Part shown: positions 3,279 through 44,853 of the stretch, one piece after another
Layout of the letters: each line of letters begins with the position of its first letter
How positions within the stretch are numbered: the stretch's first letter is position 1
IMG/VR virus record: IMGVR_UViG_2802429369_000001
DNA length: 44,853 nucleotides
Strand: one strand, 5' to 3'
Source: a virus
Notes under the pieces: generated by a model
The model's database searches: none
What the model was told of the DNA's origin: nothing
The model's input: the letters and a program-made list of their open reading frames with translations, nothing else
Made by a program: the position numbers and the translations under genes

Positions 3279-3310
3279 GGTGCTGATCTCCTCTTCGTTA
3301 TGTGTACACC

Positions 3311-3352
3311 ACAAACAATAAACCACCCATGACAGGGTGGCTAATTGTAATT
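3311..3352 (-). repeat. Family-2 intergenic element, copy 1
   Basis: mRNA sense is AATTACAATTAG-CCACCC-tgtcat-GGGTGG-TTTATTGTTTGT. Confidence 0.6.
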
Positions 3353-3386
3353 TCTAATGGTGTGTCGTGGTGGTGATAGGTTTTGT

Positions 3387-4652
3387 CTAACGCCGTTTTT
3401 TCAGTAGCACGGCGGGGCCGCTCCGCCCCTGAATCAAAGGCGCAAGCGCATAGCGCAGCGCGTCAATGTAGTGGTTAAACTTGTCGTCAATATCCGGCTT
3501 GATGTCGCCTGTCAGCCTATCTACCTTGTAGCTGTACATCCTGGCTTCACGAATAGTCTCTGTGCAACGCGGGTGAATATAGATCCGCCGATAGCTGCGC
3601 AAGTGTTGCACGCCATCCTCTACGCTTCCCGACCACTTTGGCGCGGCTTGGATGGCTGGCAGCCCTTGCTTGTCGCGCTTCAAATAGCTAATCGACTCGG
3701 GGCGTGCGCAATCAGCGCGCACCACGTATTTCTCAATGCCCGGTATTTTGGCGCGCATGTATGGCCCGGTATCGTCCAGCTCTAGCCCGACCTTGCCCGC
3801 CTCGTATTCAATGTACAGACATTCGTCATGCACCCAACACTTGATGCCCGCCGTAGGATCGTTAGCGAAACCCCAGTCCAGGCCAAAATATGGCCCATCC
3901 CATGTGCGCTCCGGCTCAAACTCGGCCACCTCGTACTTGCCAGCCAGCACTTGTTTATCTGAGTTCTCCAGGTACGCACCTTCCCACACCCATGCGTAGG
4001 TTTGCGGGTCAAGGCGTTGCTGGTCTGACTGCCGCTCCTGTTCTAATACGTCGGGGAACCATGGGTTGTCCCAATAGTTTACTTCTTCAATTCTACATTC
4101 AGTTGGTGGGTCTTTTCTGAATCTTTTATCTGTCGGGCTTCCATCTAGCTCTGGATTGTAAGAAACATATATCTCGGAGCCTTCTTCCCTAACCGTGGGC
4201 AAAAGCTTCATCCATGCGACATCGCTAACGTTTTCGGCTTCATCAACCCAGGCTAGTAGTATTCTGGCCTTTGATTTTATGCTGTCTAGGTTATGACGCA
4301 GCCCAGAAAAAACATAAGACACACGGCGGTTTTTGGTTCTGACATACTTCTCGCCAATTTCAAAATAATCAGACAGCCAGCCGACTGATATAATGGCCTG
4401 CTTAACCTCCTCAAGGCTAGATTCCTCAAGGCTATTCATGTACTCGCGAGCGCAAAGTATGACACCTGACTTGCCGCCTTCTGCTAATTGGTATGCCTTA
4501 ACAGCAGTCATTAACGCAAAAGACCTTGTTTTCCCGCTACCCCTTCCACCATAAGCAACTCTATACCTAGCGTCACCAGTGAATATTTTTATCATTTTTG
4601 GCGGTAGTTCTATTTGCGCGGTCGTCATATCAACTTCTGCCATGATTGTCAT
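3387..4652 (-). CDS. terL: Terminase large subunit
   Basis: Walker A GGRGSGKT and Walker B-like LLAWVDEAE are present, followed by a C-terminal nuclease-sized half. 421 aa, close to terS and the portal gene. Confidence 0.9.
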   Translation of the reverse strand: MTIMAEVDMTTAQIELPPKMIKIFTGDARYRVAYGGRGSGKTRSFALMTAVKAYQLAEGGKSGVILCAREYMNSLEESSLEEVKQAIISVGWLSDYFEIGEKYVRTKNRRVSYVFSGLRHNLDSIKSKARILLAWVDEAENVSDVAWMKLLPTVREEGSEIYVSYNPELDGSPTDKRFRKDPPTECRIEEVNYWDNPWFPDVLEQERQSDQQRLDPQTYAWVWEGAYLENSDKQVLAGKYEVAEFEPERTWDGPYFGLDWGFANDPTAGIKCWVHDECLYIEYEAGKVGLELDDTGPYMRAKIPGIEKYVVRADCARPESISYLKRDKQGLPAIQAAPKWSGSVEDGVQHLRSYRRIYIHPRCTETIREARMYSYKVDRLTGDIKPDIDDKFNHYIDALRYALAPLIQGRSGPAVLLKKRR

Positions 4653-5190
4653 GGAAACCTAGGTGCGACTCAAGCATCTCCCTTGCCTCTATTGCTTGGT
4701 CAAACGTTAAACCAGAACCTCCTGAATAGTATTTTCCATGACGCCAAGCCTGGACATACCAAGTCCCGTTCTTCTTGTTTTGATAGACCCCGTAATGACC
4801 CGATTTATTTTTACACCAAAGGCGCTTATTGCTCATATTACCCGTGGCATCAACTAGTCTTAGCTGGGATATACGGTTATCTGTGGTTGCACCATTAATA
4901 TGGTCAACTTCCATGCATTCGGGAATGTCGCCGTGCATAATCTTCCAAATAATCCGATGTACAAAATAAAGACGCTTATCCAGCCTAACCTTTAAATAAG
5001 CAGATCCATCTTTATTTTCTGATAGGCACCCTGCCTCTTTTCCAGCGCGCTGGGATGTATGAGTTCTCCATCCGCGTGTAGTTTTGAAGTGACTTGAAGG
5101 ACGTGGCGACCAGTAAAGCTTACCGCTTTTTAAGTCGTAATCGAAACATTCGCGAAGATACTGCTGAGAAGGAAGATTGCACATACTCAC
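4630..5190 (-). CDS. HNH endonuclease with AP2-like DNA-binding domain
   Basis: HNH core VDHINGATTDNRISQLR, followed by SGHYGVYQNKKNGTWYVQAWRHGKYY. It appears AT-richer than its neighbours by eye. It sits between terS and terL and overlaps the terL start by 23 nt. Confidence 0.8.
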   Translation of the reverse strand: MSMCNLPSQQYLRECFDYDLKSGKLYWSPRPSSHFKTTRGWRTHTSQRAGKEAGCLSENKDGSAYLKVRLDKRLYFVHRIIWKIMHGDIPECMEVDHINGATTDNRISQLRLVDATGNMSNKRLWCKNKSGHYGVYQNKKNGTWYVQAWRHGKYYSGGSGLTFDQAIEAREMLESHLGFHDNHGRS

Positions 5191-5281
5191 CTCATCATGG
5201 TGCCATCGCTAATTAGGGGGCGCGTGTCCGGCGATGAATCGGAACGAGGCCGCTAAACCTCTCACGCGCATAATAATTATC

Positions 5282-5701
5282 TCATTCTTTTTTGGATGGG
5301 GCGACCAATTCGATGCGGGTGGGCTTGGGCGTCATGCTGCCGTCATCGCTGGTATGATTGATATCTTGGCGCGAGCTATGCCGCTTAGGTGCCATACGCT
5401 CAGCGCCCCACTTCAGCGCATCAAGAATCACCTTGGCGCTTTGCGGGTCAAGGGTTCCTTCGCGCAATTCAAATCGTAATGACAATGCTTCATCGGCGTG
5501 CGCGTAGCCTGCCGCCTCACGACTCGCGTGATAATGCTCCGAAAACCCTTCGCGATCATTGACCACCCAAAGCAACACCGTGGACATGGCAGGCATGGCT
5601 TCATCGGCGCAAATAGACCGCAGACTTTCCCCCCCGGCTATCCGCGTGCATATCTCGTCTTTAATGTCTTCTGTGTATGCGGTTGGCCTAGCCATAATCA
5701 A
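5282..5701 (-). CDS. terS: Terminase small subunit (putative)
   Basis: 139 aa. N-terminal HTH-like segment RPTAYTEDIKDEICTRIAGGESLRSICADEAMP. It lies upstream of terL. Confidence 0.6.
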   Translation of the reverse strand: MIMARPTAYTEDIKDEICTRIAGGESLRSICADEAMPAMSTVLLWVVNDREGFSEHYHASREAAGYAHADEALSLRFELREGTLDPQSAKVILDALKWGAERMAPKRHSSRQDINHTSDDGSMTPKPTRIELVAPSKKE

Positions 5702-5883
5702 ATCCCATCGTTTTCGTCAGCATTGCGCGCCCAAATAGGCGTCTTGTTTAGCAGCTCGGCAAACGACTCACACTCAGCAGCGGGCTGACTAACAATCTTA
5801 TCAAATGCGGCAATTTGCTCATCATTTAGGTGATACGTGATATGGCCGTTTTCATCGACCGTTTGTGGAATCGGCATGTTCAT
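5698..5883 (-). CDS. Hypothetical protein (61 aa)
   Basis: GAGGAG lies 6 nt before the ATG, and the stop overlaps the terS start. Confidence 0.6.
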   Translation of the reverse strand: MNMPIPQTVDENGHITYHLNDEQIAAFDKIVSQPAAECESFAELLNKTPIWARNADENDGI

Positions 5884-5906
5884 CTCCTCTGGTTTCTATT
5901 GCGTCC

Positions 5907-5915
5907 ATACTAGCA
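5907..5915 (-). promoter_or_regulatory. TGCTAGTAT extended -10-like element after terminator 5917-5950
   Basis: mRNA sense is hairpin, T6, gTGcTAGTAT, about 15 nt, GAGGAG, then ATG 5883. Confidence 0.4.
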
Positions 5916-5916
5916 C

Positions 5917-5950
5917 AAAAAACCCCTCAGTACGCAGTGCGCAAGAGGGG
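5917..5950 (-). terminator. Intrinsic terminator
   Basis: CCCCTC...GAGGGG stem with an inner cgca/tgcg pairing, followed by T6. Confidence 0.65.
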
Positions 5951-5964
5951 CCGTGTTGGGGTGA

Positions 5965-6321
5965 TTATATCATGCCTAGCGCGAAACGAAACTCAGTGAA
6001 CTCTTTTTGGCTGCCTTCACAAATAGCAACCTTTCCATCGTTGAGCTTTATCACAAATGACGCTTTCTTTTTGTTGCCGCCGCATAGTAGTCCGGCCAAC
6101 GCGCCTAATTGGCCAAGCGCTACCAGTCCTGCCGTTCCCCAGCCTAACGTACCTAGCACAGACTTGGCATTGTCCTGCGAAAGCTCTTGGAACTCCTGAA
6201 TGTCGTCAAAGCTATATTTGCTTGTGGCAAACGCGCCCGTGTTTAGTGCGATAATCCGGCTGCGCTTGTTAAAGACACAGTAGCCTTTTTTGTAAAAATC
6301 GCCTTCTAGTATTTTAATCAT
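5965..6321 (-). CDS. Hypothetical protein with glycine-zipper hydrophobic segment (118 aa)
   Basis: Contains GTLGWGTAGLVALGQLGALAGLLCGG. It appears AT-richer than its neighbours by eye and is followed by a terminator at 5917-5950. Confidence 0.6.
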   Translation of the reverse strand: MIKILEGDFYKKGYCVFNKRSRIIALNTGAFATSKYSFDDIQEFQELSQDNAKSVLGTLGWGTAGLVALGQLGALAGLLCGGNKKKASFVIKLNDGKVAICEGSQKEFTEFRFALGMI

Positions 6322-6524
6322 TTCCCACCTCCCAAATTAGCCGACACCGGCCCCTCGTTTACATTACTCATCAGCGTATACCCGTCCCGCTGCAACGCGC
6401 AATAGTTGTTCATCGTCATGGCGTAGTACGCCACTTTTGCCCGTGCGAGCGTTTCAAACGTTAGATCATCCGTCATCGTGTCGCGGGTCTTGCCGTATAT
6501 CAGGGTGAAGGTTCTGGTGGTCAT
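6318..6524 (-). CDS. Hypothetical protein (68 aa)
   Basis: Overlaps both neighbours by 4 nt, consistent with translational coupling. Confidence 0.55.
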   Translation of the reverse strand: MTTRTFTLIYGKTRDTMTDDLTFETLARAKVAYYAMTMNNYCALQRDGYTLMSNVNEGPVSANLGGGK

Positions 6525-7063
6525 TCGGTTAGCTCCTGGGCGCGTTGGCGTAGTTCTGATGCAAACTGGCGAATAAGTTCAAATGCAGCGGCCCACCCGG
6601 CATCAAACGCATCCTCCTGCGGCGTATCTTCTTGCGGCCCTGACTGACAATTAACAAGCTCCAACGCTTCCGCCTGCTTAATCAGGTCGCGGCGGGTGAG
6701 GGCGTTTGTAGGCTCTTGCTTGCTCAAAGTTTCAATATTACCCATCACAGCGTCTGCGAAGCTTTGATAATCCGAAGCATTGTAATTTGAGGGAAAGGCC
6801 AACACTGCAGCGCAACGCTTCGCGTCAACGATGACGTAACTTAACTGCTCCACATGCGCCACCAGCGACGCCTCTCGCTCCATGGCGGCGTTTAGCTGCT
6901 GCAAGGCGTCACGCTCTCCCCGCTGCCGCAACGCAACCTGTAGCTCATCGCTTAACTGATACGCGTCGACATCCCGCTCTAACCTGATCACCATTAGCGC
7001 CAGCTCATGTGTGCCCATGGCGGTTAACTCGGCAAGTCGCTCTGCGTGCTCAAAATTGTTCAT
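6521..7063 (-). CDS. Hypothetical protein (180 aa)
   Basis: Coupled ORF in the operon. The protein looks helical and acidic, with no recognised motif. Confidence 0.6.
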   Translation of the reverse strand: MNNFEHAERLAELTAMGTHELALMVIRLERDVDAYQLSDELQVALRQRGERDALQQLNAAMEREASLVAHVEQLSYVIVDAKRCAAVLAFPSNYNASDYQSFADAVMGNIETLSKQEPTNALTRRDLIKQAEALELVNCQSGPQEDTPQEDAFDAGWAAAFELIRQFASELRQRAQELTE

Positions 7064-7347
7064 ACCTCCACCTCCAGTCGCTGTAGCTGATCAACAATCT
7101 CGGTTAGTTTTGCGACGGCATCGCACCATTCGGCATTCAGGTAGACGGTCTCGTAAAGCATCGGCTCCGGCCACGTTGAAGGTGGCGCGCTGTAATCCAT
7201 GCGGCAGTCATGCACGCGAATGGTCAATCCGCTCGTATGCGCCGCGTAATCCACAAACACATGGTAAGCCTCGCATTTTATCGCTGCGGCCTGTATGCGG
7301 GCGCATAGGGCACGCGCGGTGTCTGTTTGGATATTGGTTGTGGTCAT
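7060..7347 (-). CDS. Hypothetical protein (95 aa)
   Basis: Coupled ORF with 4-nt overlaps. Confidence 0.55.
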   Translation of the reverse strand: MTTTNIQTDTARALCARIQAAAIKCEAYHVFVDYAAHTSGLTIRVHDCRMDYSAPPSTWPEPMLYETVYLNAEWCDAVAKLTEIVDQLQRLEVEV

Positions 7348-7706
7348 AGGTTTAACTCCTTACTGTCAAGTAGGCCATTAACGTACATAGCCTTAGCTGT
7401 TTTATGATCTACCAGCATCCCGCCTACCGTATTGGCGTTTTCGCTTACCGGGGACTCCGGCTCATACCAGCCTGTTTCTTTTTCTTGGTTTGAAAGCTCT
7501 CTTGTATCCAAATAGCTGGCTTCGCTAGCGTGGCATTCTGTGCAGTAATACGGGCCACACTGAACCATACCAACACCAACATCTACATAATCTGCTTCGC
7601 AGCCGTCATAGCCACAGTAAGGGCATATTGCCTTCGGCGTGCTGTACGCACTGCGAGCGTATTCGTCACCACCTACAAACTTATGCCGTCCGATTCCTGT
7701 GCTCAT
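7344..7706 (-). CDS. Hypothetical zinc-ribbon protein (120 aa)
   Basis: Cysteine pairs CPYCGYDGC and CGPYYCTEC. GGAGGAGG lies upstream. It is the first gene after module A. Confidence 0.6.
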   Translation of the reverse strand: MSTGIGRHKFVGGDEYARSAYSTPKAICPYCGYDGCEADYVDVGVGMVQCGPYYCTECHASEASYLDTRELSNQEKETGWYEPESPVSENANTVGGMLVDHKTAKAMYVNGLLDSKELNL

Positions 7707-7845
7707 GCCCTGACCTCCTCCGTTGTGATACCCAAAGTATGAACCCGCCGTGGCGTGGTGGCTAATGAGTAATTTTTATGTGGTGGTTGGTGTTGGTAGG
7801 TTTTTGCTATTACTGAACCGCGCCCGGCTAGCCATGCCCCGCTAT

Positions 7846-7869
7846 CGTTACGCCCGTTACAGACGTTAC
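7846..7869. repeat. Three CGTTAC hexamers at exact 9-bp spacing (7846, 7855, 7864)
   Basis: The sequence reads cgttacgcccgttacagacgttac. Confidence 0.9.
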
Positions 7870-8027
7870 GCTCCTAATTAAACTTGTACCGCTAAAAAAT
7901 CCAGTAAAATCAAAGCTATGTGACAATAATAACAAAAATAACTAAAAAAGATTTAATTTAATAGAGAGGGGTAGATATTGTCATGCTGACCTATGAGTCT
8001 CTATCTCTATAGGTCTATCTATTGCCG

Positions 8028-8129
8028 CGTACCGTAACAAACGTAACGGTTGTATAAGTTATTGATATTTATCACAAAAACTGGATTTTTGACCGGTACG
8101 CACCGTTACAGCGGTACAGAAACGTAACG
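8028..8129. repeat. Distal hexamer cluster of module A
   Basis: CGTACC 8028, CGTAAC 8033 and 8042 (9-bp spacing), CGGTAC 8094, CGTTAC 8104, CGGTAC 8112, CGTAAC 8123. Confidence 0.85.
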
Positions 8130-8138
8130 GCTAGGCAT

Positions 8139-8161
8139 AAAAAAGCGCCCATTTGGGCGCT
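8139..8161 (-). terminator. Intrinsic terminator of the replication operon
   Basis: GCGCCC-aaat-GGGCGC followed by TTTTTT. Confidence 0.75.
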
Positions 8162-8182
8162 AATCTTGCATTTCCCACCACT

Positions 8183-10900
8183 TCACAAAAACGAATCCAG
8201 CGGCACACGTATAGCCCGCGTCTGTGATCCGGCGAACCGTTGCGGCGCTGGGCATACATCGGCACCCGGTAGCCGCGACAGTACCCGCCGCCAGCCAGCC
8301 GCCCACGGCGTATCACGAAGCATCCGTTTCAGCTCGTTGTGCGTGTTCGATATGACCAGCAGCCCGCCGTCTACAAACAGGCCATGCCGTGACAGCACCG
8401 CGTTGCAGTCATCGGCGTAGACGTCACCGCTAATTGCCTTCCTACCGCCCGCTGCCATGATGATCTCCGATACCGTGCGCTGGTAGCGGTGCCCGGCGGC
8501 GTCGAATGTGAGTTGTGTTTGCAGTATCGCGTTCAGGCACATGCCTTCGTCAGACACCTCCTCGGATTCTTTGGCTTCATCGAGGTTTATCTTCGATGTC
8601 CAGACACGCGCCTCCTCGATACTGATCTCTCTATCCATAGACAGGCTCACAGCCCCCGCCAGCAGCGTTCCGACCTGATCCCCTATACGTTGACTGCCTA
8701 GCGTCTCTGCAACGGCCTGCGCGAGCGTTTTGGCGTTTTTACGGATAACGGGAATCAGATGGTACGACCGCGCGCGAATCGCAGCGCAGCGCTCAGGCGT
8801 TAGCGTATTACCCACATGCAGCACGAACTCATTAAACCGGGCGATTTCGGCGGCAGTTTTGTCAGGCTGTTTTAGCGACACGACCGTAAACCGCGACTCG
8901 TCAGCGGCCTGACTCAGCGACACGTTCACACTCCCCAGCAGGAACATCGAGCGCATACGAAACGCCATGCCACCGCCACCGCTGGTGCCCTTCACGATTT
9001 CCGCGCTGCCATCGCTCGATGATTGTCGTGCTAGCTCGATAACCGATTTCATGCGTTTCTGCGCGCTGTGATCTTCGGATTCTGCCTCATCGAAAATCAC
9101 CGGGCGCGCATCCTGCTTGAGGTGCTGACGTATCCCGGCCTCAGTGGTGCCGCCCTGCACCATAAGCGCAGACTGCCCAAGCAGGGGCTGAATGATGTTT
9201 TCCTGCACCCACGATTTTCCCGCGCCACGCTGCGCCGTCAGCCATACGTGCGGACGCCACCCGAGCGCCCCGCATATCGGTGCTAGCACCGTCCATCCGG
9301 CCATCGCCCAGCCGTGAAACGGCGTTGACCAGTTGAGCTGCTGGAATAGCTTAAACACTTCGTTAGCCGCGTTATTATCGGCTGGCGGTGCGTCAATCGT
9401 GGACTCCATCGGCCCCTGACGTGTGTAAATAAACCGCGTGTCGTGATCCGCGATGCGCTTAGCCTCACCGTTGACAATCAACCGATCCCCAAGGTGCAGC
9501 ACACTGTTACCGCCGTCATACCACGCGCCGCGACCACGCACGTTACGCAGGCTGTACACGCCACGCGCCTCGCACGCACGCATACACGACGATGCCGCCG
9601 CCTGCCAGTCGGTGCCGGATTTATCCTTTGGGTACGCCATATCCCACCACTCGACGGGTGCCAGTGCCAGCATCTCGGCGGGCGACGTATGGCTGCCCCG
9701 GCGTATCTCGCAGACCTGCTCAGTGCCACGCGGCAAGTAGTAATACATCGCGCCATCAAATCCGAGCGCACGAAACGGCATGCTGGTTTTTTCTACGGCG
9801 GAGGCTGGCTCTGTATCGGGAAAATCGTCCGGCGCTGACGTATCGGCATCATCCGGGCTGCCAGCGGGCGGCAGGTCGTCGGGTGGCATATCAGGCGGTG
9901 GTGCCTCCAATGCAGCAGCCTGGGGTGATTTGACGCGCTCGCGCTTGATGCCGTATTCGTCCGCCAGCGCCTTGACCGCCTTGCCTGCATCGCCGCCGTG
10001 TTCAAATTGGCAAATCAGGTCAAATGCGTTAACCGGGCGACCTGTTTCCTCGCTGCACAGCGGGTCGCTCGCGTGGTGTATCCAGCACGACTGATCACCG
10101 TCGAACATAACAACACCGGGTAGCCCAGTGTTGCTATGCGGACTCAGAAAACGACGACGACCAACGGGCTTGTAGCCTAACCGCTGCAACGTGGCGCGCA
10201 AATCCTCACGACTCAGGCACTCGTCAATAACGCTGGCACCGTGGTGGTCGCGTGGTTCGCGTGGTGGTTTTGGTGGTGGTGTTTGTTCGCGCACCGCCCA
10301 TGGGCATGCGTCCTTAAATTGCGGCTTGAATTTGTCCCATGCTTCCCAGATAGCCAGCAGCCAGTCCGGTGGCGGTGGGAAGTCTTGTCCGGCGGCGGGT
10401 GGCTTGACTAGCCACTCGTAATTTTTCTGCGCCTGATCGTGCCAGCTTGGGGGTAGCACGTCCTGGCGTTGCTTGCCGTCACACGCAGCTCGTAGCTCGA
10501 ATACCGTAAACAGCGTGGCCGCGTCGCGCTTCGGCCAATTCAGCTTTGCATACGGCAACGCCATACCATCAGGCACGCGAAACATAACGCGACGGCCTTT
10601 AGCGCTGCCCTGAATCGTTGGGTAGTGATCCAGCGCGCTACGCGGTATACCGAACTCGTCCAGCACGGTGCCGAACGATTCAGAACAGTCAATATCCAGG
10701 CTGCACATGCGAGACGGCCCCAGCGCGAGGCCCATATTCCAGTCGGGATGCTCACGATAAAACACCTCGGCGGCATCCGGGTCGCTCAATACCTGGTTGC
10801 CCCAATCGTTCGCCGTGGGAAATTTGCGGCCCGGCTCTATTGGCACCAACTGGAAACCATAGCGCGACACGTACTCCCGCGCATATTCATTGATTGTCAT
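8183..10900 (-). CDS. Primase-helicase (prim-pol N-terminal domain plus P-loop SF3-type C-terminal domain)
   Basis: 905 aa. N-terminus YGFQLVPIEPGRKFP...CSLDIDC. Walker A QRGAGKSW and Walker B PVIFDEAE. A proline-rich linker separates the two halves. Confidence 0.8.
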   Translation of the reverse strand: MTINEYAREYVSRYGFQLVPIEPGRKFPTANDWGNQVLSDPDAAEVFYREHPDWNMGLALGPSRMCSLDIDCSESFGTVLDEFGIPRSALDHYPTIQGSAKGRRVMFRVPDGMALPYAKLNWPKRDAATLFTVFELRAACDGKQRQDVLPPSWHDQAQKNYEWLVKPPAAGQDFPPPPDWLLAIWEAWDKFKPQFKDACPWAVREQTPPPKPPREPRDHHGASVIDECLSREDLRATLQRLGYKPVGRRRFLSPHSNTGLPGVVMFDGDQSCWIHHASDPLCSEETGRPVNAFDLICQFEHGGDAGKAVKALADEYGIKRERVKSPQAAALEAPPPDMPPDDLPPAGSPDDADTSAPDDFPDTEPASAVEKTSMPFRALGFDGAMYYYLPRGTEQVCEIRRGSHTSPAEMLALAPVEWWDMAYPKDKSGTDWQAAASSCMRACEARGVYSLRNVRGRGAWYDGGNSVLHLGDRLIVNGEAKRIADHDTRFIYTRQGPMESTIDAPPADNNAANEVFKLFQQLNWSTPFHGWAMAGWTVLAPICGALGWRPHVWLTAQRGAGKSWVQENIIQPLLGQSALMVQGGTTEAGIRQHLKQDARPVIFDEAESEDHSAQKRMKSVIELARQSSSDGSAEIVKGTSGGGGMAFRMRSMFLLGSVNVSLSQAADESRFTVVSLKQPDKTAAEIARFNEFVLHVGNTLTPERCAAIRARSYHLIPVIRKNAKTLAQAVAETLGSQRIGDQVGTLLAGAVSLSMDREISIEEARVWTSKINLDEAKESEEVSDEGMCLNAILQTQLTFDAAGHRYQRTVSEIIMAAGGRKAISGDVYADDCNAVLSRHGLFVDGGLLVISNTHNELKRMLRDTPWAAGWRRVLSRLPGADVCPAPQRFAGSQTRAIRVPLDSFL

Positions 10901-37465: not shown

Positions 37466-37512
37466 CACCAAACAATAGCCCACCCCACCACCTACCCGCT
37501 AATGGTATTTTT
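37466..37512 (-). repeat. Family-2 intergenic element, copy 3 (centre is not a hairpin)
   Basis: mRNA sense is AAAAATACCATTAG-CGGGTAGGTGGTGGGGTGGGC-TATTGTTTGGTG. Confidence 0.55.
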
Positions 37513-37617
37513 CTATCGACTCACGCCACCCGATAGCAACCACCTATAAACGGCAACGCCCCGATGTTTGCCGGGGCGTCTAGTATGCGGGTGTCGCTTA
37601 ACAGCGCCGCACCCTTT

Positions 37618-41481: not shown

Positions 41482-41490
41482 AGTATAGCA
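41482..41490 (-). promoter_or_regulatory. TGCTATACT motif, 28 nt before the scaffold gene ATG in module B
   Basis: Plus strand reads agtatagca. The homologous TTCATACT in module A lies at 7736-7743. Confidence 0.5.
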
Positions 41491-41540
41491 CGGCTATCAC
41501 GTCGCGCAAAGCGGTGCAAGCGGCATGGCTCGCCGAGGTG

Positions 41541-41587
41541 CGTTACGCCGAAAAACAGGGTGCCGTTACAAACGTTACAAACGTTAC
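41541..41587. repeat. CGTTAC at 41541, plus three at exact 9-bp spacing (41564, 41573, 41582)
   Basis: The sequence reads ccgttacaaacgttacaaacgttac. Confidence 0.9.
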
Positions 41588-41743
41588 AGCCCTAAGTAAA
41601 CTTGTACCGGTTAAAAATCCAATGGATTCAAAGGCTTGTGACATATATAACAATAATTACAGAAAATAGATATATATATAGAGGTCTGACTCTCTAAGTG
41701 ACTGCTAGTGTTTATGTATATGTGACTATCGTTCGCAAAACAG

Positions 41744-41864
41744 CGTAACAAACGTACCGTTTGTATAAGTATATGATATTTAAAAGAAAACACCCGTTAC
41801 GCTGCAATTTTTAAGCGTTACGCACTTTTGAAACGTAACGCTTGGCCGTTGACGTAAGCGTAAG
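41744..41864. repeat. Distal hexamer cluster of module B
   Basis: CGTAAC 41744 and CGTACC 41753 (9-bp spacing), CGTTAC 41795 and 41816, CGTAAC 41834, CGTAAG 41853 and 41859. Confidence 0.85.
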
Positions 41865-41884: not shown

Positions 41885-41907
41885 AAAAAACCCGCCAGGG
41901 TGGCGGG
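41885..41907 (-). terminator. Intrinsic terminator preceding module B
   Basis: CCCGCC-accct-GGCGGG followed by T6. Confidence 0.75.
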
Positions 41908-41930
41908 TTGGGTGCACGAATGGTGTGCCG

Positions 41931-43542: not shown

Positions 43543-43572
43543 GTTTATTCCACTCCCGTTGCGTTATCGATA

Positions 43573-43620
43573 CCCAAACAATAAACCCCAGCTGCTGCCG
43601 GGGCTAATGGTATTTTTTTA
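43573..43620 (-). repeat. Family-2 intergenic element, copy 2
   Basis: mRNA sense is AAAAAAATACCATTAG-CCCCGGCAGCAGCTGGGG-TTTATTGTTTGGG. Confidence 0.6.
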
Positions 43621-43644
43621 TCGTGTAGCGGCGGGTGATAGGCG

Positions 43645-44604
43645 CTATCTATCAGGCTCAAACGCGGCGCGCTGTTTTTCAAGCCTCGCCTCTAACGGCC
43701 CAAGGATGGGCTTTCCATCATCGCCAATCAAAACACTGACTTGTGAGCACTTGCAGTTCACCGATTCACCCCCCTGGCTATAAAACTCCGCCACATCTTG
43801 AGCGGTTAGCACCTGCGAGTGCTTGCGTGCATGGCTCGCTCGGGTAGTTGGACTCAATGCGCTCAGCCACAAGAGCTGCGTGTTAATGCCTAGTCGTTCG
43901 CGTGCGTCTTGGTTTTCATCTCTAGTGGCGCGCCTTAATGCGCTACCTATCTCAGTCCGCGCAATGGTCTCTGCCCTACGCTCAGCAATCCCAAACCGCG
44001 CACGTATATCCTTCGCCACCGTACGCGGATTCAATCCATCCTCAACGCCCTGGCTAAGCACGCGCCCCAAATCGGTAGCCGTGTCGCCGTTGAATGATTC
44101 CATCTGCTCGAAGACACGCGACCGCACCAACGCCACCCGCCGCTGCCACGGCTCCGACGCCAGCACCTGGGTGATCTCCCGCGTGTAGTCATCTGTCAGC
44201 GCCGCAAGTTGCGCGACTGCGGTTCCGGTACCTGCTTCGTAGGCAAGCACCGTTTGCGCGGCCATATAATCCGGTGGCACCTCGATACCCAGTCGGCGGC
44301 GTATCTCCTCGATAATAAGGCGCAGCTCCTCGACGCTAATCAGGTAGTCGTAGCGCGTTTCGTTGACCAAATAGCCCGGCACGCTAGCATTAATCGTAAT
44401 CTCGCGCTTAGGTATCTCTTCGAAACGCTTAAGCACCCATCGGCGAACATCACGCAAGCCGCGTTTTAGGCGGCTGACGGTTTGTTGCTGCAGTCGGGCA
44501 CCGCCAACGGGGTTCTCTGTGTTGCGGGGTAGGGTGGGGTATTTAGGCATTCCGACCACCACACTTGCGCCCACGCTCAGCATCAGCACATAAATAGCGG
44601 TCAT
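43645..44604 (-). CDS. Minor head protein (phage Mu F / SPP1 gp7 family)
   Basis: Contains RRAETIARTEIGSALRRAT and the C-terminal NCKCS motif. The start is uncertain (44604 or 44550). Confidence 0.7.
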   Translation of the reverse strand: MTAIYVLMLSVGASVVVGMPKYPTLPRNTENPVGGARLQQQTVSRLKRGLRDVRRWVLKRFEEIPKREITINASVPGYLVNETRYDYLISVEELRLIIEEIRRRLGIEVPPDYMAAQTVLAYEAGTGTAVAQLAALTDDYTREITQVLASEPWQRRVALVRSRVFEQMESFNGDTATDLGRVLSQGVEDGLNPRTVAKDIRARFGIAERRAETIARTEIGSALRRATRDENQDARERLGINTQLLWLSALSPTTRASHARKHSQVLTAQDVAEFYSQGGESVNCKCSQVSVLIGDDGKPILGPLEARLEKQRAAFEPDR

Positions 44605-44728: not shown

Positions 44729-44838
44729 ACCATCCCCTTAGGCCGCATATCCAGCCACTTCATCTGCAAATACCACTGAAACGCAGCCACCTCTTGGTAT
44801 TTGGCGGTTTCGTACCAGTGTTGGTGTGTTTCGGTCAT
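44725..44838 (-). CDS. Small ORF (37 aa) lying mostly in the terminal repeat and spanning the circular junction
   Basis: The same ATG occurs at 84 in the left repeat copy, where it overlaps the stop of the DUF551-like gene (ATGA). Translation is MTETHQHWYETAKYQEVAAFQWYLQMKWLDMRPKGMV. Confidence 0.4.
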   Translation of the reverse strand: MTETHQHWYETAKYQEVAAFQWYLQMKWLDMRPKGMV

Positions 44839-44853
44839 TGTGGTGGCTCCGGA
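44755..44853. repeat. Second copy of the 99-bp terminal repeat
   Basis: Identical to 1-99. Confidence 0.95.

Follow-up and report, generated by a model that had tools for sequence, protein, structure and literature searches.

The 44,853-nt stretch of viral DNA analysed here (IMG/VR record IMGVR_UViG_2802429369_000001, referred to as the window) contains at positions 7707-8182 an intergenic region, named Module A, in which copies of a short word are arrayed on both sides of an AT-rich core. This raises the question of what the region does for the phage. A previous sequence-only reading had left three designs undecided, namely a replication origin, a pac site and an enhancer-type regulated promoter; the origin is supported by the present analysis, while the pac site is not, and neither is the promoter as a primary role. 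Module A is probably an iteron-type origin served by the 905-aa protein encoded upstream of it, with a region in the late genes, Module B, as a second, diverged cognate copy. The grounds for reading Module A as an origin are its position 3' of the primase-helicase gene, an architecture that recurs among relatives, the co-variation of word and initiator, the least stable core of the genome and the enrichment of the IHF consensus.

Anatomy of Module A and of its second copy

The region is indeed free of genes, with all open reading frames (ORFs) inside 7707-8130 being 43 aa or shorter, and the hexamers, conserved blocks and terminator that had been described in it were all recovered. The module proper occupies about 7840-8135. 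Read along the minus strand, it is preceded by an intrinsic terminator which closes the replication operon (8134-8161, minus strand; stem at 8144-8161, then a T run) and which has a counterpart in relatives. A distal cluster of iterons follows at 8094-8129 (CGGTAC at 8094, CGTTAC at 8104, CGGTAC at 8112 and CGTAACG at 8123-8129), the positions of which are kept across an alignment of 10 related modules. Next comes an IHF-consensus site, TATCAATAACTTA, at 8055-8067 (minus strand), one of the two matches to WATCAANNNNTTR in the whole window. The core-proximal iterons at 8029-8048 form a pair with 9-bp spacing (CGTAAC at 8033 and 8042), together with an overlapping GTACCG at 8029, and the sequence of this pair, ccGTTACGtttGttACG, is the best-conserved block among the modules. 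The AT-rich core, presumed to be the DNA-unwinding element, lies at 7905-7985. It contains the family-wide CTCTCTATTAAATTAAATC...TTGTTATTATTGTCACA (minus strand) and a GTGAC at 7920 within TGTGACA, and the motif CTCTATATATATATCTATTT is kept behind primase genes that are accompanied by differing iteron words. On the far side of the core, a conserved block at 7873-7903 combines a CGGTAC-type iteron (7886-7891) with an A/T tract, and the module ends in three iterons in exact 9-bp phase at 7846-7869, which read CGTTAC on the plus strand (7846, 7855 and 7864) and YGTAACG on the minus strand. This 9-bp-spaced triple is kept in B-type and A-type relatives alike. The orientation of the word is ambiguous, being inverted by the central base and direct by the flanks.

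The block at 7873-7903 also pairs with 8080-8099 as a 20-nt inverted repeat (90% complementary) bracketing the core of Module A. Because of this repeat, Module A folds better as a single strand than shuffled sequences do (z -3.3); the corresponding value for Module B is z -2.3. In the centroid structures, local hairpins between inverted iterons predominate. No DnaA boxes were found in either module, a search of Rfam gave no match across the whole window, and a scan for sigma-70 promoters gave only chance-level sites inside the modules.

The enrichment claimed for the word was borne out, with 8 occurrences of GTNAC in 7840-8135 against 0.71 expected (P about 9e-7). For GTWAC, the same interval (~296 bp) holds 7 occurrences against 0.31 expected (P about 4e-8). 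The density of CGKWAC peaks at 15 per 300 nt, the highest value reached in 300 simulated first-order Markov genomes being 8. This enrichment is purely local and not genome-wide: over the whole genome GTNAC is not enriched (125 against 133 expected), and CGTTAC is found 32 times against 21 expected. As for duplex stability, no 60-mer of the genome is richer in AT (83%) or less stable than 7905-7964, which has a value of -63.1 kcal/mol compared with a genome-wide mean for 60-mers of -88.3 kcal/mol (standard deviation 5.7). The core of Module B comes second, at 41621-41680 by AT content (78%) and at 41643-41702 by stability (-64.1 kcal/mol). Both core 60-mers lie more than 4 standard deviations below the mean stability and have repeats on either side.

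Module B (about 41541-41840) is a colinear paralogue of Module A, with 8 copies of GTWAC where 0.32 are expected (P about 2e-9), and the two module regions are the two largest non-coding stretches of the genome. They are 75% identical over the full intergenic regions (about 476-496 nt), have the same orientation and are colinear across the ~290-nt module. The 39-nt and 31-nt blocks that had been called conserved are conserved relative to this second copy. Its elements follow the order of those in Module A, with distal iterons at 41795, 41816 and 41835, an IHF-like site with one mismatch to the consensus, a proximal pair at 41744/41754, the AT-rich core at 41621-41702, a CGGTAC at 41604, a phased triple at 41564/41573/41582 and an additional iteron at 41541. 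On the minus strand, each module is found after an intrinsic terminator (41889-41909, minus strand, for Module B) and ahead of the start of an operon. Since the indels that separate A from B have lengths not divisible by three, a conserved small ORF is unlikely. Module B lies 11 kb from the initiator gene and is thus not adjacent to it, unlike Module A.

Co-variation of the module with the adjacent primase-helicase

The sequence-only reading had named no protein that would read the hexamers, and the adjacent 905-aa Prim-Pol/helicase is now proposed for this role by inference. Its gene (8183-10900, minus strand) is followed directly at its 3' end by Module A, with the stop codon at 8183, the terminator stem at 8144-8161 and the first iteron at 8129. 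The protein, P905, combines a Prim-Pol domain at its N terminus (Pfam PF09250 at aa 7-180) with a C-terminal SF3/D5/Cch-like helicase module of 580 aa (phrog_35358, 'DNA primase', at aa 326-905). A search of PDB sequences gave no match. An AlphaFold2 model of aa 327-905 was obtained with a predicted local distance difference test score (pLDDT) of 84, in which the C-terminal domain has a helix-helix-helix-beta-hairpin arrangement. The best Foldseek match of this model is SCCmec Cch (5dgk, E 6e-7), and further top matches are AsfvPrimPol, MPXV E5 / vaccinia D5 and the C-terminal region of NrS-1. The model thereby supports a fold like that of the self-loading SF3 helicases for the C-terminal 580 aa. 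The last 156 aa (750-905, pLDDT 90) are predicted to form a tandem helix-helix-helix-beta-hairpin with a winged-helix-like topology. TerS and the small helix-turn-helix proteins had also been put forward as readers of the hexamers, and no co-variation in support of them was found.

With the primase as bait, 79 viral contigs were retrieved. In many of them the primase stop codon is followed in the same order by a terminator, a few short repeats, a site of the ATCAAnnnnTTA type, a pair of repeats, a core with CTCTATATATAT and more repeats, the last three or four of which are in phase. This ordered anatomy is present even where the primase is only 35-60% identical, and dozens of metagenomic phage contigs have this architecture behind a homologous helicase gene. 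The word itself is specific to the lineage, being GTWAC, GTSAC, GTAGTC/GTAGAC, GTCAAC, TGCAAAC, TGCATAC or GCGCACG. Where the primase is 79-82% identical, the iteron positions and the TATATA core are kept while the spacers diverge. In 13.5 kb of modules there are 14 exact copies of the IHF consensus, as against 7 in 227 kb of flanking DNA, an enrichment of ~34-fold. Conservation of the hexamer positions, for which a comparison with related phages had been suggested, is seen in metagenomic relatives. A BLASTN search of 50,697 phage records returned only a coding fragment in Klebsiella phages. A scan for the pattern of the CGTTAC triple gave mostly noise from tandem coding repeats and added three true relatives. 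In near-identical genomes neither module shows any polymorphism, hence no footprint can be read from them.

The closest relatives, whose portal proteins are 88-93% identical, are mosaics, and their comparison amounts to a natural swap test. The window has P905, a GTWAC A site and a Terminase_3 with an Sf6-type TerS. Contig L290 has a P905 that is 97% identical and an A site that is 100% identical, also of the GTWAC type, next to a Terminase_6. In L292, the initiator is a protein of 763 aa (Prim-Pol + PriCT_2 + DUF3987) and the A site consists of GCTATCCTGC/CTAAGCAGC around a ATATATAAAAATATATATA core, while its Terminase_6 is 99% identical to that of L290. The 763-aa initiator and the A site of L292 are also those of L294, which has a Terminase_3 and a gp3-type TerS. 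Finally, L296 has a 665-aa initiator (Prim-Pol + PriCT_2 + AAA_25), an A site made of AAATCACCG repeats and a Terminase_3-like enzyme, the latter according to the same weak TerL match as in L294 and not directly annotated. The 763-aa and 665-aa initiators are unrelated to the 905-aa protein, BLASTP giving E=2 for the former. Which type of module is present therefore depends on the initiator gene rather than on the packaging genes, and this independence from the terminase argues against a pac site.

The comparison can be extended to the B sites. In three contigs whose initiator is the 763-aa protein, the B site holds a module of the TATCCTGC type, an old paralogue ~65-70% identical to the A module of the same contig. 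A further P905-type genome, L305 (primase 82% identical), contains another module of the GTWAC type in front of terS. Since modules are paired in the TATCCTGC-type contigs as well as in the GTWAC genomes, cognate pairs have been kept in at least two specificity classes.

The architecture recurs behind analogous helicase genes as well. Modules of the GTCACGTTTGTCACG type were also located immediately 3' of helicase genes of the AAA_25 and DUF3987 kinds, and GTSAC-rich ones were located by means of GTCACGTTTGTCACG at L388 1000-1650, L393 200-900, L354 3100-3700, L353 4550-5200 and L400 1450-2050. By BLASTP, the AAA_25 (RepA/DnaB-like) and DUF3987 genes beside the GTCACGTTTGTCACG modules do not resemble the helicase part at the C terminus of the 905-aa protein. 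Between the P905 family and those AAA_25 helicases that share the word GTCAC, no common C-terminal domain was found; the similarity is confined to a segment in the middle of the protein that follows Prim-Pol (about aa 190-420, varying with the protein). The helicase module of P905 itself (aa 326-905, 8183-9922) belongs to no Pfam family, yet has more than 1,000 homologues, in which it is found fused to Prim-Pol, zf-CHC2/DUF6371 or Zn_Ribbon_Prim N-termini. In L136 (5610-6150) and L137 (5742-6190), an extra minus-strand gene and a TGCACA/GTGCAC cluster lie between the primase gene and a GTSAC-type module, an arrangement that may be a repressor-operator insert.

Alternative readings and neighbouring elements

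Several observations weigh against the origin reading, or against parts of it. Binding, melting and firing at the module are predicted from the DNA sequence, and the co-variation of word and initiator could conceivably stem from linkage with a different gene in the replication cassette. Two relatives (L294/L120 and L296/L130) combine a GTWAC B module with an A module that is not of the GTWAC type, and no P905-type gene was found in the parts of these two (3300030392_000429 and 3300022693_000380) that were examined. In a further relative, L123, the terminator at the B site runs directly into the promoter CTTTGCAC...TGCTATACT and the module is absent. With B unmatched in two relatives and missing from one, it is dispensable and need not match the resident initiator, at least in recent recombinants. 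The IHF consensus, imperfect in Module B, is missing from the B modules of close relatives. On the side of the protein, Foldseek gave no significant match for the isolated aa 750-905 (best E 0.33), the weak matches including the winged-helix proteins TcpK and ScpB, and a sliding comparison of identity between same-word and different-word primases revealed no segment that tracks specificity. Lastly, the cumulative GC skew has no inflection at Module A or B, although it is uninformative here because gene orientation dominates it.

The position of both modules, each between a terminator and the start of an operon, would also suit a regulatory array for the late operons, in which a phage protein bound to GTWAC and a bend introduced by IHF would switch the promoters after A and B. 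Looped activation typically involves repeat clusters with an IHF-type site between them, and the second module of L305 likewise precedes an operon, terS-terL. Such an array is however difficult to reconcile with the promoter of the B site being kept in the module-less L123, with A and B preceding two different types of promoter, and with the distance between triple and promoter, which differs between A and B by a 24-nt indel. The neighbour that is invariant throughout the family is the upstream helicase gene rather than the downstream genes, and a repeat-flanked stretch of 60-80 bp with minimal stability would be unusual for activator sites. We give this explanation a small chance of being correct. 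A pac site of the P1/SPP1 type, at which TerS would bind the repeat clusters around the cut region with the aid of IHF, is much harder still to credit. Hexamer clusters around a centre together with an IHF site do resemble the pac of P1, and Module A heads the operon containing terS and terL. Against this, the genome holds two copies in colinear form, at distances from terS of 2 kb and about 9 kb along the transcribed strand; an identical Module A occurs with different terminases (the window and L290) and a 99%-identical TerL with different modules (L290 and L292); the module is tied to helicase genes even where the packaging genes are unrelated; and the words are without GATC.

In a further reading, the initiator would bind these sites without firing them, either as an autoregulatory or handcuffing array or, for B, as a fork barrier serving the switch from theta replication to concatemers. 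The crr of P4 is a second iteron site required in cis, and the occupancy of the B site varies among relatives, as would be the case for an accessory site. The gp38 protein of SPP1, bound at oriR, has moreover been proposed to stall forks (PMC3485210, PMC6316719). Both A and B nevertheless retain the full anatomy of an origin, including a low-stability core that a binding array would not need, and the position of A and its family-wide conservation fit a primary origin. Sites of this kind are improbable as the explanation, about as much so as the regulatory array, and an origin at Module A remains the reading that we prefer.

The sequences between each module and the operon after it can be separated from the module. 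The -10-like AGTATGAA noted at 7736-7743 is present and is the reverse complement of TTCATACT, which is not part of the origin proper. It belongs to the promoter/leader element of the downstream operon (7716-7806, minus strand; TTAGCC-N18-CATACT), which is kept in relatives whichever type of module lies upstream. This is one of four copies of a ~70-nt element found at operon starts on the minus strand (3295-3385, 7716-7806, 37470-37560 and 43558-43648), with the sequence CCTAYCAcC...ATAAAAAWWTACyCATTAGCC, a GC-rich hairpin of ~17 nt, and then TTTATTGTTTGGGTATCA. The four copies may be a family of phage promoters (TTAGCC-N18-TATTGT/CATACT) or else junctions between a terminator and a promoter. 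An inverted repeat of 28 nt (82% complementary) has one arm at 7563-7590, inside the first gene after Module A, and the other at 7776-7803, just upstream of the promoter element. At the B site, a head-operon promoter (TTTGCG-N17-TGcTATACT) was read from the sequence at 41482-41510 (minus strand). It is separable from Module B and kept in all relatives, including the module-less L123, where its presence without the module shows that the promoter is independent of it.

The packaging genes are themselves exchanged: at least three terminase cassettes (at about 5,000-9,000 in each of L290, L292, L294 and L296), namely Terminase_3 with Sf6 TerS, Terminase_6, and Terminase_3 with gp3 TerS, circulate in phages with 88-93% identity in the portal and flanking genes. 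TerL as bait missed the close relatives because the terminases are swapped. An ORF for an HNH_3 endonuclease is located between terS and terL in the window (4630-5190, minus strand), and in relatives a GIY-YIG endonuclease is encoded just upstream of the large-terminase gene (6413-7138 in L290), which suggests that the terminase region hosts homing endonucleases.

The genome was assembled as a circle, positions 1-99 being identical to 44755-44853 (99-nt identical ends), with a unit length of 44,754 bp. Identical copies of it are present in several marine metagenome assemblies (Tara, ENA). The portal is at most 42% identical to that of any isolate, and no cultured relative therefore exists. The bins of metagenome-assembled genomes that hold this genome and its primase carry three different genus labels (Herbaspirillum, Methylophaga and Halomonas), so that the host is uncertain.

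A proposed two-site origin and its relation to known systems

The arrangement described above suggests the following mechanism. The initiator would recognise GTWAC/CGKWAC on both sides of the core, through the 9-bp pair on one side, the 9-bp triple on the other and the outlying copies, while a host IHF-type protein would bend the arm carrying TATCAATAACTTA. The helicase would then assemble on each side and melt the AT-rich core at 7905-7964, and the Prim-Pol domain would lay the first primers. The upstream terminator would block read-through from the operon into the module, and the promoter firing away from the module may aid opening through negative supercoiling. Module B would act as an accessory second origin or initiator-binding site, comparable to oriR of SPP1 or crr of P4. 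We infer the binding of the words by the 905-aa protein, the melting and priming at this location and the parts given to IHF and to Module B from this arrangement, and the words shared by the two modules suggest that both are read by the same initiator.

The design itself is a known one, and what is new is that it occurs in a group of phages from which it was not previously known. In the core origins of SV40 and the papillomaviruses, pentanucleotides on both sides of a centre and close to an A/T tract are read by an SF3 helicase-initiator. These are eukaryotic viruses with no homology shown to the present phage, and the likeness is one of analogy. In P4, the alpha protein reads both ori and crr through octamer iterons, TGTTCACC. 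Like alpha, the 905-aa protein appears to be a single multifunctional primase-helicase with short iterons at two sites of its genome, and its C-terminal origin-binding domain is predicted. The primase of alpha is however of the Toprim type and crr consists of direct 120-bp repeats, whereas an archaeo-eukaryotic Prim-Pol and two full paralogous modules are found here. Alpha and its winged helix are cited in work on pRN1 (PMC4234260), whose origin lies 3' of its Prim-Pol/SF3 gene; a similar layout has been suggested for Bordetella phage BIP-1 (PMC4234260). pRN1 ORF904 and the BIP-1 protein resemble P905 in joining Prim-Pol to a helicase of the SF3 type (plus a winged helix, predicted in P905 by topology), with the origin just 3' of the gene after a terminator (PMC4234260). 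Those origins are described as ~100-nt stem-loops without iterons, whereas here short iterons dominate and the single-strand folding exceeds that of shuffles only moderately.

The origin of the Staphylococcus aureus pathogenicity islands (SaPIs) has 6-12 penta- or hexanucleotide iterons directly downstream of rep, with an AT-rich centre; Rep, or the fused PriRep5, reads them through its C-terminal winged helix (PMC9371898). Common to both systems are iterons 3' of the primase-helicase gene on both sides of an AT-rich centre, with words specific to the initiator, and a self-loading helicase as the initiator, in some cases with a fused primase, SCCmec Cch being the best structural match of our model. 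There is however no detectable sequence homology to Rep, the phylum is another one, and ours is a lytic-type marine phage and not a satellite. The winged helix is here predicted at the level of topology, and an IHF-type site, a conserved CTCTATATATAT core and a second copy 11 kb away set the present modules apart from the SaPI origin.

The Bacillus phage SPP1 has two similarly built origins, of which oriR lies in the late region between transcription signals (PMC6316719), and the initiator bound there is proposed to stall forks and trigger the synthesis of concatemers (PMC6316719, PMC3485210). The two genomes share a pair of elements made of direct repeats and AT-rich DNA, ~11-13 kb apart on the circular map, with one at the initiator gene. 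Like oriR, Module B lies among late morphogenesis genes, with the terminator at 41889-41909 on one side and the promoter of the head operon on the other. The two systems differ in that oriL is inside gene 38 and not after it, that the repeats are unrelated, and that gp38 is a separate origin-binding protein which needs a loader and a DnaB-type helicase.

A broader view would make this locus the first representative of an extensive and so far undescribed class of origins belonging to the Pfam-less D5/Cch-like helicase clade, with at least three primase fusions, an easily reprogrammed pentamer and a late-region copy maintained by selection. That copy would then serve fork arrest and the switch from theta to sigma replication, or the coupling of replication to late expression. 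A two-site mechanism of this kind is hinted at by the pairs of A and B, which two specificity classes have maintained independently. We consider this view possible but rather doubtful.

At its present strength, the origin reading assigns a function to both of the largest non-coding stretches of a common marine phage and names a probable initiator, while a false lead is removed in that the region is unlikely to be a pac site. It also provides a simple rule for annotating origins in metagenomic phages, by which the DNA just 3' of a helicase gene, of either the Prim-Pol/SF3 or the AAA_25/DUF3987 type, would be searched for short words around its least stable stretch. The changes of word that have arisen naturally among related initiators would be a ready system for studying how origin-binding specificity evolves, and the paired modules A and B may be a Gram-negative counterpart to oriL and oriR of SPP1.

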